Of a stretch of DNA of 64,000 nt, positions 14,439-39,513 are shown piece after piece. The stretch's first letter is position 1, and the number at the start of each line of letters is the position of its first letter. Both the position numbers and the translations under genes were made by a program. Origin of the DNA: Escherichia coli (GTDB taxonomy: Bacteria; Pseudomonadota; Gammaproteobacteria; Enterobacterales; Enterobacteriaceae); NCBI RefSeq assembly GCF_003991155.1, contig NZ_CP031293.1. One strand, given 5' to 3'. Under the pieces are notes generated by a model. The model had not been told where the DNA came from. It was given only the letters and a program-made list of their open reading frames with translations, and did no database searches.

Positions 14439-14945
14439 TTATTTCCGGCCTGCGAGGCCCAGCTCTGCAATCAGTTGCTCACGGCTCTTTTCGTCATCAA
14501 GCAATGCCTGAAGTTGTGCACGGAACGCAGGGATATTGCCCATTGGCCCCCGAAGCGCCACCAATGCTTCGCGTAGTTCCAGCATTTTGCGCATCTCCGG
14601 CACCTGGGAGGCAATGTTGTCCGGAGAAAGATCGGCCAGCGAGCTGATTTTCAGATTTACGCTCATGCGCGTATCAGGCGTTTCGCTGAGAGCAGACGGA
14701 ACGGTGAAATCACGACCAATCCCTGCCTGATCCAGCACTGCGTTAAAGTTGTTGCGGTTGATGGCAACGGGCTGGCGCTCATCCAGTGGCGTGTTATCTG
14801 CATCACCTGTCAAATTGCCAGTAACCAACAGATTTAGCGGTAATTCCACTTCTGCTGTCTGATTCCCCGTTTTTGGCTTAAATTTAATATTTACTCTTTC
14901 TTTTGGGGCAATACTGCCACCACCGTCATTTCTTCTGCTGCTCAT
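14439..14945 (-). CDS. tssB: TssB/VipA sheath small subunit
   Basis: ORF 14439..15026; probable start MSSRRNDGGGS at 14945 (168 aa). Confidence 0.8.
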   Translation of the reverse strand: MSSRRNDGGGSIAPKERVNIKFKPKTGNQTAEVELPLNLLVTGNLTGDADNTPLDERQPVAINRNNFNAVLDQAGIGRDFTVPSALSETPDTRMSVNLKISSLADLSPDNIASQVPEMRKMLELREALVALRGPMGNIPAFRAQLQALLDDEKSREQLIAELGLAGRK

Positions 14946-15232
14946 AAGAATAATCCATAAGGTTATCATCCAGGCCATGAGCGCAGCATGTTCTGCATTT
15001 AAAAAATACAGCAAATACCAGCCCAATGGCAGTAAAAAAATAAAATTCTACACATTCATAGCGTCACATTCTACGCGCAGAAAAGCATTTGAAAAGAAAA
15101 TTTTCAAGGGGTATCCTTCCACGAAACAATAGGAACAACAAAAGACAAAGAAGCCTGAAACCATGCATGCCAAGCACGCAATGCCCAATAGTGAATTATG
15201 TAACTCATTGATTTTAGATCTTTGATCAAGAA

Positions 15233-15312
15233 ACATAAGGATTTCTTATGACTTACAGAATATATATAAATTCCGTGATTATAATTTGAAATAAAATAAG
15301 GATATCCTTATT
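15233..15312. promoter_or_regulatory. Divergent tssB/hcp promoter region with two ATAAGGAT-centred palindromes
   Basis: CATAAGGATTTCTTATG (15233..15249) and perfect 18-bp palindrome AATAAGGATATCCTTATT (15295..15312) in an AT-rich ~570 bp intergenic region. Confidence 0.35.
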
Positions 15313-15627
15313 TTTATCAAAGTGACAATTAAGAACAACAGAATATAATATATATTCATGATAAAGCCATGCCTTTTATAGATGGTGATTGAAAAACATT
15401 TACCAACCACTAGCGATCATCCACTCGTTGATTAAAGTTTAACTAAACAGAAAGTTTAAAATTTGTAAAAACAATTATTACGACAAGCGTTAATTCGCAT
15501 TGTCTGTAAATCAAGCACAGAGAAATGGTGTGGTTCTAGGCATGGACCGTATCGTTATCTGCCTGCCAGGGATTAATGGCAGGTCATCAGCAAGTTGTTG
15601 TTAAGAACATTCACAAGGAGTTTACAA

Positions 15628-16146
15628 ATGCCAACACCGTGTTATATCTCAATTACTGGTCAGACCCAGGGAAACATCACCGCAGGTGCATTTACTGCTG
15701 ATTCCGTCGGCAATATCTACGTGCAGGGCCATGAAGATGAAATGCTGGTGCAGGAATTCCTGCATAACGTCACCGTCCCGACGGACCCACAATCTGGCCA
15801 GCCAGCCGGACAGCGCGCTCACAAGCCATTTATCTTCACTGTGGCGCTGAACAAAGCAGTCCCCCTGCTGTACAACGCGCTGGCCTCCGGTGAAATGCTG
15901 CCTACCACTGAACTGCACTGGTGGCGTACCTCTGTGGAAGGCAAACAGGAACATTACTTCACTACCCGCCTGACAGACTCGACAATTGTTGATATGAAGT
16001 TGCATATGCCGCACTGCCAGGACCCGGCAAAACGCGAGTTCACCCAGTTACTCGAAGTTTCGCTGGCCTACCGCAAAATCGAGTGGGAACACGTTAAGTC
16101 AGGCACTTCTGGCGCTGACGACTGGCGTGCACCGCTGGAAGCATAA
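15628..16146 (+). CDS. hcp: Hcp (TssD) T6SS tube protein
   Basis: Start MPTPCYISITGQTQG at 15628 with AAGGAG RBS; 172 aa. Confidence 0.9.
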   Translation: MPTPCYISITGQTQGNITAGAFTADSVGNIYVQGHEDEMLVQEFLHNVTVPTDPQSGQPAGQRAHKPFIFTVALNKAVPLLYNALASGEMLPTTELHWWRTSVEGKQEHYFTTRLTDSTIVDMKLHMPHCQDPAKREFTQLLEVSLAYRKIEWEHVKSGTSGADDWRAPLEA

Positions 16147-35682: not shown

Positions 35683-35714
35683 CTGAAAAACCCGCTTTTA
35701 TAGCGGGCTTTTCG
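35683..35714 (-). terminator. Terminator downstream of cbl
   Basis: GCCCGCT-ATAAAAG-AGCGGGT hairpin followed by T-run on the minus strand. Confidence 0.5.
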
Positions 35715-36665
35715 CTATATCTGATAATCAATTTCCTCTTCACTGTTTTCCATCACCTGGCGCTTGATATCCTCAACTGACAGTCCTGCATTACAAAGTT
35801 CCAGAAAGCGCCAGACATAGTTACGTTGAAGTTGCCCTCGCTTCAGTCCCAACCAGACAGTATTAGCATCGAAAAGATGCCTCGTATCCAGACGGATTAA
35901 ATTCTTTTCCTCTTGTTCACCACTGGATTGTTCGGCAACTAATCCGATCCCCAGCCCAAGAGCAACATAGGTTTTAATGACATCAGAATCCTGCGCACTT
36001 AATACAATATCTGCCAGCAAACCTTTGCGGGCAAATGCGTCATCAATACGTGAGCGCCCCGTAATCCCCTGTCGGTAAGTAATTAACGGCCACTTCGCTA
36101 TTGATTCCAGCGTCAACGGTGTAATTTGCGTCAAGGGATGATCGAGTGGAACAAGCAAACTATGGTGCCAACGAAACCACGGGAAGGCGACGAGCTGCGG
36201 GTCATTACTCAAACGCTCGCTGGCGATACCAATATCAGCTTCGCCATTTTGCAACAACGTCGCAATTTCCTGTGGTGTACCCTGGATTAGCTCCAGCCGA
36301 ACCTCCGGGAAAAGTTCGCGAAAAGCTTTAATGACCTCAGGCAAGCTATAACGTGCCTGAGTATGCGTCGTTGCAATAGTGAGAACGCCAGACGTATCGT
36401 TGGTAAACAGGTCTGCAAGCCGACGAACATTACTGGCTTCATTCAGAATACGTTCTGCAATGACCAGTAATGCTTTGCCCGGTTCAGTCATGCCCAGCAG
36501 TCGCTTACCTCGTCGAACAAATATTTCGATGCCAAGTTCATCCTCCAGTTCCCGAATATGACGGCTAACGCCTGACTGTGAGGTAAAAAGCATATTCGCA
36601 ACCTCTGTCAGGTTGTAATCCTGACGTGCAGCCTCGCGGATTATCTTTAGTTGTTGGAAATTCAC
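35715..36665 (-). CDS. cbl: LysR-family regulator Cbl (CysB-like)
   Basis: 316 aa; sequence recognised as E. coli Cbl (MNFQQLKIIREAARQDYNLTEVANMLFTSQSGVSRHIRELE...). Confidence 0.9.
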   Translation of the reverse strand: MNFQQLKIIREAARQDYNLTEVANMLFTSQSGVSRHIRELEDELGIEIFVRRGKRLLGMTEPGKALLVIAERILNEASNVRRLADLFTNDTSGVLTIATTHTQARYSLPEVIKAFRELFPEVRLELIQGTPQEIATLLQNGEADIGIASERLSNDPQLVAFPWFRWHHSLLVPLDHPLTQITPLTLESIAKWPLITYRQGITGRSRIDDAFARKGLLADIVLSAQDSDVIKTYVALGLGIGLVAEQSSGEQEEKNLIRLDTRHLFDANTVWLGLKRGQLQRNYVWRFLELCNAGLSVEDIKRQVMENSEEEIDYQI

Positions 36666-36766
36666 GGTAAACTCCGGGCAGTTCAGATATCCCGTTATTG
36701 TTAAAGTCTAATGCCCGGCATAACAAATAATAAAAACCCGCATCTTATTCCATCCCGATATAACGC

Positions 36767-37684
36767 TTAGCTCACCAATTGCCACTGCCTTTTTTCCATC
36801 ACTGGAGAATTCATCACTGACATTAACAACTCTTTCACTGCTTGCGCCTGTGGTGATAAGTTCGCTCTGGCGGGTAAATTTAATGACAAAGAGAGACTCA
36901 TGGAAGGAGTGGTAATGCGTGACATCCAACCATTTACTGCGCCACATAACGAACGCGCGGCCGATTCGGGTAATACTGCAACGCCCATGCCGCTGGCAAT
37001 CGCTGCGGTAAGCGTGGCAATAGACTCAATTTCACCAATGACTTTTGCCGTGAGTCGCCGTAGGGAAAAAGCCTCATCAACACGAAGTCTAATAGCACTG
37101 TAATCACTTGGGAGAAAAAGGTTCATTTGCGCAATAGCATTAACATCAACGCTTTGCCCCGGGCAATCTTGAGTTCCTACCAGAAAAAGATCTTCTTTCA
37201 GTAAAGCCTGACTGGATACACCAGCCACAGGGGAATGCTCATAAATCACCGCCATATCGAGTTGGTGATTTATCAGTTTTTCGTTAAGTACTGCACCGCT
37301 ATTTTCATGAAGATAAATAACGACCTCCGGGAATTCAGCGCGAACCGCCTGTAATAAGGGCATGGTGATGGATGACGCAGCGGTTCCTGGCGCAAAGCCA
37401 ATCGAGACTTGCCCCGATAATGCCTGACCAACGTTATGCACCGCCAGTTGGGCCTGCTCACACTGACGTAAAATGGCCCGCGCATGGGTATAGAGAATTT
37501 TTCCGGCGTCAGTTGGCGTAACACCCCGTTTTGTGCGAATCAAAAGTTGTTGATTTAACTCACCTTCCAGTGTGGCAACCTGCTGACTGAGCGCTGGTTG
37601 TGCGATATGCAATACTTCAGCAGCCTGGGTCAGGCTACCAATATCTACAATTTTTACGAAGTATTTCAGGCGTCTGAAGTTCAT
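36767..37684 (-). CDS. nac: LysR-family nitrogen assimilation control protein Nac
   Basis: Start MNFRRLKYFVKIVDIGSLTQAAEVLHIAQPALSQQ at 37684 (305 aa); recognised as Nac. Confidence 0.9.
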   Translation of the reverse strand: MNFRRLKYFVKIVDIGSLTQAAEVLHIAQPALSQQVATLEGELNQQLLIRTKRGVTPTDAGKILYTHARAILRQCEQAQLAVHNVGQALSGQVSIGFAPGTAASSITMPLLQAVRAEFPEVVIYLHENSGAVLNEKLINHQLDMAVIYEHSPVAGVSSQALLKEDLFLVGTQDCPGQSVDVNAIAQMNLFLPSDYSAIRLRVDEAFSLRRLTAKVIGEIESIATLTAAIASGMGVAVLPESAARSLCGAVNGWMSRITTPSMSLSLSLNLPARANLSPQAQAVKELLMSVMNSPVMEKRQWQLVS

Positions 37685-37738
37685 GTTGCCTCCGGTTTTT
37701 AAGAATCGGCCCAAGTGCCGCCATTACTTACAACCAGA

Positions 37739-37754
37739 TTGCAAGATGCTTGCC
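37739..37754 (-). promoter_or_regulatory. sigma54 (-24/-12) promoter for nac
   Basis: Minus-strand TGGCAAGCATCTTGCA matches TGGCAC-N5-TTGCA with correct GG-to-GC spacing, ~55 nt upstream of the nac start. Confidence 0.6.
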
Positions 37755-37870
37755 AGTTTTATTTTGGCGTTGATGTACAAGCTAACCAACTGTCAAATAA
37801 GAGATTATGATAGTTTTGTCACTCGATCTTTTTATTAGAACTCGCGTTCTCTGCCCCAAGACATAAAGGT

Positions 37871-37887
37871 ATGCACCACGATGGTTC
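37871..37887. promoter_or_regulatory. Putative NtrC enhancer half-palindrome upstream of nac
   Basis: TGCACCACGATGGTTCA resembles the TGCACC-N5-GGTGCA NtrC site consensus. Confidence 0.3.
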
Positions 37888-38008
37888 ATTACCAAAAAGA
37901 TTGAAAGCTCACCATTTTGTCGAAATTGGCAGCAAACAAACAAAAAAATGCATTTCACCCTTTGACATCACCATGCACTGCCATTAATATGCGCCCCGTT
38001 CACACGAT

Positions 38009-38084
38009 TCCTCTGTAGTTCAGTCGGTAGAACGGCGGACTGTTAATCCGTATGTCACTGGTTCGAGTCCAGTCAGAGGAGCCA
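38009..38084 (+). tRNA. asnV: tRNA-Asn (anticodon GTT)
   Basis: 76 nt TCCTCTGTAGTTCAGTCGGTAGAACGGCGGACTGTTAATCCGTATGTCACTGGTTCGAGTCCAGTCAGAGGAGCCA; cloverleaf consistent, anticodon GTT at 38042..38044; gene symbol inferred from position next to nac. Confidence 0.9.
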
Positions 38085-38250
38085 AATTTTAGTCTTGAGA
38101 CATCTCTATAAGTCTCAGGATAGTTAAAAAACAAGAACTTATCTTTACCCGGTTGTCTCGCAAGAGGCTGCTGGGTTTCTTGACATCCATAGTTTTTAGG
38201 GGCCTAATCAGGGGCCTCACGGTTCGGTGAGCAAACGGAGCCCCCACGCT

Positions 38251-39513
38251 ATGGCATTAACAGACACCGCTATTCGCAAGACTAAACCCTCTGACAAACC
38301 CTTCAAAATGACGGACAGTTCTGGACTGTACCTGTTGATCAAACCTAACGGCTCAAAACTCTGGTATATGAAGTACCGCATCGACGGCAAAGAGAAGAAA
38401 CTGGCCTTTGGCCCCTACCCGGAGATCTCCCTGTTGCAGGCTCGCCGCCTGCGCGAAACAGCACGCAATAACATTCATGCAGGCGTCGATCCGGCTGCGG
38501 TGAAGCAAACCGAGAAACAGAAGAGGAAAAACGGGCAGACGTTCAGCCAGATCGCCATCAACTGGCATAGCGAGCATAAACGCTGGTCTGAGCATTACGC
38601 GAAAACGGTTATGCGCAGGCTGGAAATGTACGTTTTCCCGGATATCGGGGATCGCCTTATCGAGGAGATCGAAACGGAGGATTTGTTATTCACGTTGCGC
38701 AAGGTAGAGAGTAAAGGCTTTCTGGAAATCACCGCGCGGCTGAAAAACTACGTCACCGATATCATGCACTACGCGATGAAAAAGAAACTGCTCAAAGCGA
38801 ACCCGGCGCTGTATCTGGACGGTGAGTTTGCCGCGCCAGAAACCAGTCACTACCCGGCCCTGTCGCTGGACAAATTGCCTGAGCTTTTAACCCGGACGGA
38901 TAGCTACTGCGGCAGGCTGCTGACAAAATACGCGCTTAAGCTGTCGCTGATTTTTTTTGTGCGCTCCAGCGAACTACGCTTTGCGCGCTGGAGTGAGATC
39001 GACTGGCAGCAGAAGTTATGGATAATCCCGGAAGAGCGCGAACAGATCGAAAACGTGCGCTTCTCTTACCGGGGGTCGAAAATGAAAATCCAGCACATTG
39101 TGCCGCTGTCGGATCAGGCGATTGCGATACTGAAACAGATCGAGGCCCTCTCCGGGCATCTGGCCTTTATTTTTCCCGGCGAATACGACCAGGACAAGTG
39201 CATGAGCGACAACACCGTCAACAAGGCGCTGCGCGTGATGGGTTACGACACCAAAAAGGATATCTGCGGGCATGGCTTCCGGGCAATGGCCTGTAGTGCG
39301 CTGAGCGAATCGGGATTATGGAGCAAAGAAGCCATTGAAAAGCAGATGAGCCACCAGGAAAGAAACAGCGTCCGTGCTGCCTATATTCACAAGGCTGAAT
39401 ATCTGGAGGAACGGATCGAGATGATGCAGTGGTGGTCAGATTATCTTGATGCAAACAGTGACGGGTATGTCTCGGCTTACCAGTATGCCCGCCGCCTAAA
39501 ACAGGCGTCGTAA
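38251..39513 (+). CDS. int: P4-like tyrosine integrase
   Basis: ORF 38227..39513; probable start MALTDTAIRKTKP at 38251; phage-integrase family features; lies directly 3' of the tRNA. Confidence 0.85.
   Translation: MALTDTAIRKTKPSDKPFKMTDSSGLYLLIKPNGSKLWYMKYRIDGKEKKLAFGPYPEISLLQARRLRETARNNIHAGVDPAAVKQTEKQKRKNGQTFSQIAINWHSEHKRWSEHYAKTVMRRLEMYVFPDIGDRLIEEIETEDLLFTLRKVESKGFLEITARLKNYVTDIMHYAMKKKLLKANPALYLDGEFAAPETSHYPALSLDKLPELLTRTDSYCGRLLTKYALKLSLIFFVRSSELRFARWSEIDWQQKLWIIPEEREQIENVRFSYRGSKMKIQHIVPLSDQAIAILKQIEALSGHLAFIFPGEYDQDKCMSDNTVNKALRVMGYDTKKDICGHGFRAMACSALSESGLWSKEAIEKQMSHQERNSVRAAYIHKAEYLEERIEMMQWWSDYLDANSDGYVSAYQYARRLKQAS

Follow-up and report, generated by a model that had tools for sequence, protein, structure and literature searches.

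The 64,000-nucleotide stretch of Escherichia coli chromosome analysed here (the window) contains, between two divergent T6SS gene sets, a perfect 22-bp palindrome, Pal2 (AAAATAAGGATATCCTTATTTT, 15293-15314), and an imperfect dyad, Pal1 (CATAAGGATTTCTTATG, 15234-15250). With a probability of about one half, Pal2 is plausibly a single activator-type regulator site lying upstream of the hcp promoter, the arms of which have been lengthened by template switching. The palindrome would be the version found here of a conserved element located upstream of the hcp-side T6SS promoter. Its 14-bp core, TAAGGATATCCTTA (15297-15310), would be bound by a dimeric helix-turn-helix regulator, the gene of which is at another place in the chromosome. 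The centre of the site is about 52 bp upstream of the predicted hcp start, and the adjacent -35 is weak and variable, which suggests an activator-dependent promoter; the site would fall within upstream space shared with the divergent tssB promoter. The symmetry outside the core (22 bp in the window, 36 bp in sister strains) would not be part of the operator, and would result from replication template switching, by which a quasi-palindrome is progressively corrected. Pal1 is plausibly a separate, weakly conserved dyad, and its likeness to Pal2 is recent and probably incidental.

Results

The tssB-hcp control region and its genomic setting

The window is 100% identical to NZ_CP029747 and to other records. 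Gene coordinates were taken from the RefSeq annotation of a 100%-identical record, and translation and start codons were checked. The left edge of the control region is formed by the tssB CDS (14439-14945, minus strand, ATG at 14945), which encodes the T6SS sheath small subunit and heads the set tssBCEFG-tagH-tssJKL-tssH-vasI-tssA-tssM-vasL. The right edge is formed by the hcp CDS (15628-16146, plus strand), which encodes a protein identical to WP_016159310.1 and heads the set hcp-vgrG-DUF2169-PAAR/Rhs. With its vasI, vasL and tagH genes, the window cluster presumably fits the i1/"T6SS2" class. The divergent arrangement of tssB and hcp assumed in the original prediction is confirmed by the annotation. 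The control region had been delimited there to 15027-15627 (600 bp), and has to be extended: because the annotated tssB starts at 14945, on the minus strand, and hcp at 15628, the intergenic region spans 14946-15627, or 682 bp. The AT-richness noted in the same prediction is real. The GC content of the region is 34% overall, with a minimum of 24% at 15200-15399 and about 50% in the flanks, and no other part of the locus is as AT-rich as the intergenic centre.

The intergenic region is present in 28 of 5,426 complete E. coli genomes, at 99.9-100% identity in all. About 2,190 other E. coli genomes host a related cluster, which can be aligned to the region only in the 170 bp immediately preceding hcp (about 70% identity). 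This common cluster occurs in O157/O55 strains. We infer that it represents the i1/"T6SS2" class, because O157/O55 carriers are ST11, the sequence type discussed for T6SS^i1 in a survey.

The TssB protein of the window is closest to Citrobacter proteins (90% identity). The T6SS island (window positions 1-34000 and 35700-39500) adjoins the core genes cbl and nac, with a P4-type integrase (38227-39513), ISAs1 and IS3 transposases and Rhs fragments. The rarity of the region, its Citrobacter likeness, and the integrase and IS sequences nearby are consistent with horizontal acquisition. In two relatives featuring the same intergenic type (L040 and L041) the cluster is apparently truncated directly after tssB, and a DUF554 gene or an integrase is found in place of tssC. 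No regulator gene was found in the T6SS island, and an island-encoded regulator was accordingly discarded as a candidate; cbl and nac are adjoining core genes, the proximity of which reflects the insertion site.

AT-rich DNA on an acquired island, as found here (24-34% versus about 50% GC), is the setting expected of an H-NS-silenced promoter. H-NS silencing is documented for other T6SS clusters, and silencing of this region would fit both its composition and the literature precedent.

Sequence and statistics of the two palindromes

Pal2 is the longest perfect palindrome of the 64-kb window. The second-longest, the 16-bp TGCAGGAATTCCTGCA, is located within the hcp CDS (15749-15764). In 20,000 Markov-1 simulations of the intergenic region, perfect palindromes of at least 22 bp were obtained in 0.075% of cases (P ~8e-4), and Pal2 is non-random. 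The palindrome had been described as AATAAGGATATCCTTATT at 15295-15312; this sequence is found exactly there, but perfect symmetry extends two bases further on each side. Beyond the 22 bp, imperfect arms reach 15285-15321, and correspond to a 36-bp perfect palindrome in five relatives (L009, L032, L035, L042 and L043).

Pal1 had been placed at 15233-15249. The sequence exists, one base to the right, and is imperfect, as its 8-nt arms, separated by a 1-nt centre, are complementary at 7 of 8 positions. Its half-sites, TAAGGA and TAAGAA, are 1 nt apart, versus 2 nt in Pal2. Pal1 alone is not significant, because dyads of equal quality appear in 70% of shuffles. The 8-mer ATAAGGAT, found in both palindromes, recurs outside Pal2 with P ~0.03. 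The distance between the two sites, given earlier as about 45 bp, is 44 bp edge to edge and 61.5 bp centre to centre. TAAG[GA]A half-sites number six in the window region, versus about one expected, and five are clustered at 15236-15335. One of them, TAAGAA at 15330-15335 (plus strand), is an extra half-site located inside an invariant AATTAAG between the predicted -35 and -10 of hcp. Further copies of the 14-bp core were searched in the window, and none above chance was found.

Two GATC sites are located to the left of Pal1. One is included in the block TTTAGATCTTT (15213-15223), invariant within the lineage; the other, at 15224, immediately precedes the dyad. A GATC is found at the aligned place also in S. 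houtenae, C. freundii and one metagenomic relative.

Palindrome length varies within the lineage

Ten distinct lineage variants, 90-97.5% identical to the window type, were compared. The 14-bp core and the TTTTTATCAA that follows it are invariant in all 10. The left flank of the core is hypervariable (7 of 16 columns), and Pal1 is as variable as its background (5 of 17 columns, versus 27% overall). An invariant run of 14 within the variable centre is not exceptional (P = 0.70, permutation). In sister strains at about 90% identity the Pal1 position reads CATAAGAAATATTTATG, and the shared ATAAGGAT is confined to the sub-lineage featuring 22- and 36-bp palindromes. As these distant members carry CATAAGAAATATTTATG, the 8-mer that Pal1 shares with Pal2 is recent, and restricted to one sub-lineage.

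The perfect palindrome measures 14 bp in six variants, 22 bp in two (the window included) and 36 bp in five; the 36-bp sequence is TTTGATAAAAATAAGGATATCCTTATTTTTATCAAA. The window and L009 differ at 18 positions, two of which (15290 A>T and deletion of 15292) complete the 36-bp palindrome. The 36-bp state thus corresponds to a substitution plus a 1-bp deletion, by which the left arm becomes the exact complement of the right arm. A tree of the region built with the palindrome masked, and resting on few differences, places the 14-bp type at the base and the 36-bp type on two branches, a distribution that could result from recombination instead of recurrent templated mutation. Metagenomes scanned with a flanking 25-mer yielded two contigs only, both of the 36-bp type.

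An independent case was found in C. koseri L017, where a 31-bp perfect odd palindrome, TTTAAGGAATATCTG-a-CAGATATTCCTTAAA, lies at the conserved box that in this species occupies the position of Pal2. It spans approximately positions 1603-1633 of L017 (intergenic positions 368-398), and the box makes up one arm. At the same site the palindrome is imperfect in sister C. koseri strains. L017 also hosts an inverted repeat with 18-nt arms in the hcp leader.

Quasi-palindrome template-switch mutagenesis is established in E. coli, and compound changes that perfect a repeat are its signature (PMC7202029). Pal2 exhibits this mark of a template-switch hotspot, as compound changes templated by the opposite arm raise the complementarity of the arms. 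The similarity with Lovett-type QP reporters lies in imperfect inverted repeats being perfected through compound templated changes; the difference is that Pal2 is a natural polymorphism of a putative promoter element, deduced by comparison and not from observed mutation events. We conclude from the alignments that the putative functional unit does not exceed the 14-bp core, the longer Pal2 arms being most likely mutational by-products.

A box at the position of Pal2 is conserved across genera

In all, 23 distinct orthologous tssB-hcp intergenic regions were compared, and 18 non-redundant orthologs were used for motif and promoter scans. Sequences derived from mainstream E. coli, six Citrobacter species or strains, Enterobacter huaxiensis, Lelliottia, Buttiauxella, Hafnia, Salmonella houtenae and metagenomic contigs. 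Conservation is strong at the ends next to the two genes, and the intergenic centre is mostly unalignable, with conserved islands.

Conservation in orthologous regions had been proposed as the check on the palindromes, and the outcome is mixed. The exact palindrome motif was absent from 6, and then from 21, orthologous regions, despite Hcp proteins being 91-95% identical, and outside the lineage of the window ATAAGGAT is missing from all the orthologous intergenic regions compared. What is kept is a degenerate box, TTTAAGGAATATCT(C/G)A, found at the position of Pal2 in mainstream E. coli, C. koseri, E. huaxiensis, Lelliottia and others, with which the 14-bp core aligns. At the position of Pal1 only a weak conserved dyad, CATAA-N7-TTATG, is seen. 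In other genera the sequence at the position of Pal1 is unrelated to that at the position of Pal2. Since Pal2 coincides with the cross-genus box, a protein-binding cis-element at this place is plausible. The box is located about 47 bp (46-50 bp among genera) upstream of the conserved TATAAT/TTATTCATGAT block. So variable a distance is loose for contact with RNA polymerase, which is a point against an activator site.

Predicted promoters and the hcp leader

The best sigma-70-like site detected in the region by consensus scan, matching 11 of 12 consensus positions, is a predicted hcp promoter (15322-15349, plus strand) made of GTGACA (-35, 15322-15327), a 16-nt spacer and TATAAT (-10, 15344-15349). 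A promoter-like element at this place passes the consensus scan in 8 of 18 orthologs. The -10 and the downstream block ATATAATATTTATTCATGAT are kept across genera, and the -35 is variable, 4 of its 6 columns differing within the lineage. A kept -10 associated to a weak, variable -35 suggests that the hcp promoter may be activator-dependent. The centre of Pal2 corresponds to about -52.5 relative to the predicted hcp start, which we infer to be near 15356.

For tssB, the best positionally conserved promoter-like element, identified by consensus scan in 12 of 18 orthologs, is predicted at 15068-15095 (minus strand), with TTTTCA as -35 (15095-15090), a 16-nt spacer and TAGAAT as -10 (15073-15068). 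The tssB-proximal 170 bp (14946-15115), strongly conserved across genera, include this minus-strand TAGAAT. A third partial copy of the motif, CATAAGGTTATC, is found just upstream of the tssB ATG, at 14956-14967. The predicted divergent promoters are about 295 bp apart. As both palindromes sit between these positionally conserved promoter-like elements, they are predicted to lie in untranscribed DNA.

The hcp 5' leader features two hairpins (15530-15550 and 15561-15584) supported by covariation in 19 orthologs. In the second, GCCTGCC-N10-GGCAGGT, one pair is C-G, U-A or U-G depending on the species. The presence of two covarying leader hairpins argues, independently, that hcp transcription starts far upstream. 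The loop usually includes GGA, and the Shine-Dalgarno sequence is AAGGAG; the combination suggests a putative CsrA-type binding pair. The hairpins did not match any Rfam family.

Candidate binding proteins

The motif was originally thought to match no known regulator box. Its core does have the geometry, TAAG-N6-CTTA, of the dimer sites of NarL/FixJ (LuxR-type) proteins such as RcsB, RcsAB and UvrY, but the match is statistically not compelling. The published RcsB box is a 14-bp sequence, TN(G/A)GAN4TC(T/C)NA; most of the mapped boxes are less than 100 bp upstream of a TSS or ATG, and mutational data indicate that AGG halves weaken binding (PMC7913699). Pal2 would likewise be less than 100 bp upstream of the hcp start, which is predicted and unmapped. 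The Pal2 core matches the consensus at 6 of 8 positions, featuring G for A at position 5 and C for T at position 10. Pal1 scores 4/8, the ortholog box TAAGGAATATCTCA 7/8 and an adjacent box of E. huaxiensis 8/8, all comparison boxes having been picked after seeing the sequence. Matches of at least 7/8 occur somewhere in about 60% of shuffled regions. In the roughly 50 bp aligned with Pal2 they are found in 11 of 18 non-redundant orthologs; the comparators are post hoc, and as the ortholog sequences are homologous, these matches are not independent. Several orthologs have two RcsB-like boxes 13 bp apart. The resemblance to RcsB sites is weak evidence, given the 6/8 score of Pal2 and the frequency of chance matches to the consensus.

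The RcsAB box of K-12 rcsA, TAAGGATTATCCGA, verified in K-12 at -264, is matched by TAAGGAATATCTCA at 11 of 14 positions. It is a 14-bp pseudo-palindrome, the left half of which, TAAGG, is found also in the Pal2 core. The UvrY/GacA box (TGTAAG-N6-CTTACA), verified in the csrB site TGTGAGAGATCTCTTACA, has the same TAAG-N6-CTTA architecture as Pal2, in the same orientation, and both enclose a palindromic central hexamer (GATATC in Pal2 versus AGATCT). In Pal2 the flanking TG/CA are replaced by AA/TT, and in the 14-bp type by AT/AC. UvrY is not known to bind strongly outside csrB and csrC.

A literature search on the promoters mapped in E. coli for this T6SS class, and on its regulators, found nothing specific. 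In other systems, RcsB directly binds and footprints on a Serratia T6SS promoter (PMC5565961), and a fusion to an E. cloacae T6SS operon showed 45-233-fold dependence on sdiA (PMC4444967). The Rcs-dependent T6SS-1 of ExPEC, cited in a review, appears to belong to a different T6SS class. In Klebsiella the effect of RcsB on T6SS is negative and indirect. The SdiA box that has been proposed does not generalise, according to a review, and provides no usable consensus. A regulator of the LuxR/NarL type, with RcsB first, would be the most likely binder of the Pal2 core; RcsB is the best-fitting known candidate and SdiA the second. Confidence in this assignment is low.

Discussion

Alternative explanations

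In the original prediction Pal1 and Pal2 formed a paired operator for a dimeric regulator. Read this way, they would be two copies, centred on ATAAGGAT, of one operator bound cooperatively by a dimeric or tetrameric protein controlling both operons. The recurrence of the 8-mer in the two sites, the 61.5 bp between centres, which are near six helical turns, the excess of TAAG[GA]A half-sites and the location of both sites between the predicted divergent promoters all agree with such a pair. The arrangement looks unlikely all the same. The 8-mer is shared in the 22/36-bp sub-lineage only, Pal1 being CATAAGAAATATTTATG in sister strains; Pal1 varies as its background does, and dyads as good are frequent in shuffles; the half-site spacing differs by 1 nt; orthologs carry unrelated sequences at the two positions, and the conserved box is at the Pal2 position only. 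What survives of the earlier proposal is an operator-like site at Pal2, made plausible by the cross-genus box, and what falls is the reading of two copies of one motif. It is somewhat less improbable, though still doubtful, that the palindrome is purely mutational, the product of template switching at a hairpin-prone AT-rich stretch in an H-NS-coated acquired region, the core being kept by shared ancestry. The length polymorphism among near-identical strains, the independent perfect case in C. koseri, the non-significant invariant run, the 24% GC of the centre and the documented H-NS silencing of T6SS clusters are all accommodated. Not so the box TTTAAGGAATATCT, which is kept across genera where the surrounding sequence is unalignable, at a roughly fixed offset from the conserved -10; moreover, both independent palindromes are built on this one box, and not elsewhere in the equally AT-rich 300 bp.

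A role of DNA structure is very unlikely. Extrusion of the 22-36-bp palindrome as a cruciform or hairpin would modulate the divergent promoters, and arm length would tune T6SS between strains. Negative supercoiling arises between promoters that are transcribed divergently, natural strains differ in palindrome length, and the predicted stability of the single-strand DNA hairpin increases from -1.6 to -5.2 to -12.5 kcal/mol in the 14-, 22- and 36-bp types. Stems are nearly all A-T, however, with two G-C pairs per arm, 22-36 bp are short for stable extrusion in vivo, and the basal lineage members and other genera lack a long palindrome. Hardly credible is a further set of identities, that is, a Fur box, a weak bidirectional terminator or an RNA element. 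The E. coli sci1 T6SS of EAEC, under a Fur/Dam switch, offers a precedent, as GATC sites and AT-rich operators are found in its control region, upstream of tssB; Fur also regulates several T6SS clusters of E. coli and Salmonella. In the window, the half-site AATAAGGAT is loosely like the Fur half-site GATAATGAT, and two GATC sites are just left of Pal1. Yet sci1 belongs to a different T6SS class, and only one GATC is conserved here within the lineage. The best match to the 19-bp Fur consensus GATAATGATAATCATTATC is 12/19, reached or beaten in 87% of shuffles, and no positionally conserved site of at least 14/19 was found in any ortholog (best 13/19). A scan for G+C-rich stems followed by T-runs detected 0 terminator-like sites, Rfam covariance models gave 0 matches at E <= 1, and Pal2 is upstream of both predicted promoters. 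Mobile or repeated elements (MITE, REP, IS end) were discarded too, as the sequence was found at a single locus per genome across 2,219 E. coli genomes. A NAC/LysR-type ATA-N9-TAT motif fits Pal1 in the window; it was set aside, being seen by eye in a minority of orthologs and expected by chance about once per region on a rough estimate.

Significance

The activator-type site with lengthened arms remains the preferred explanation of Pal2. Palindrome length polymorphism is the most interesting aspect of the locus, the rest being most likely one ordinary cis-regulatory site, present in degenerate form across Enterobacteriaceae. A bolder view, which we regard as quite improbable, is that the polymorphism (14/22/36 bp, and 31 bp in C. 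koseri) reflects a recurrent templated switch, heritably retuning T6SS through regulator affinity or cruciform propensity, or else that the box is the target of a not-yet-described class-specific regulator recognising TAAGGA half-sites. The 14/22/36-bp series provides a clean natural example of a quasi-palindrome being perfected at a putative regulatory site, and illustrates how a conspicuous perfect palindrome can make the functional element look larger than it is. Should the 14-bp core be a real operator, it would be a concrete, mutable target for studying how this widespread enterobacterial T6SS class, the regulation of which is poorly mapped and which includes the common E. coli i1/"T6SS2" cluster with its related box TAAGGAATATCTCA, is switched on.
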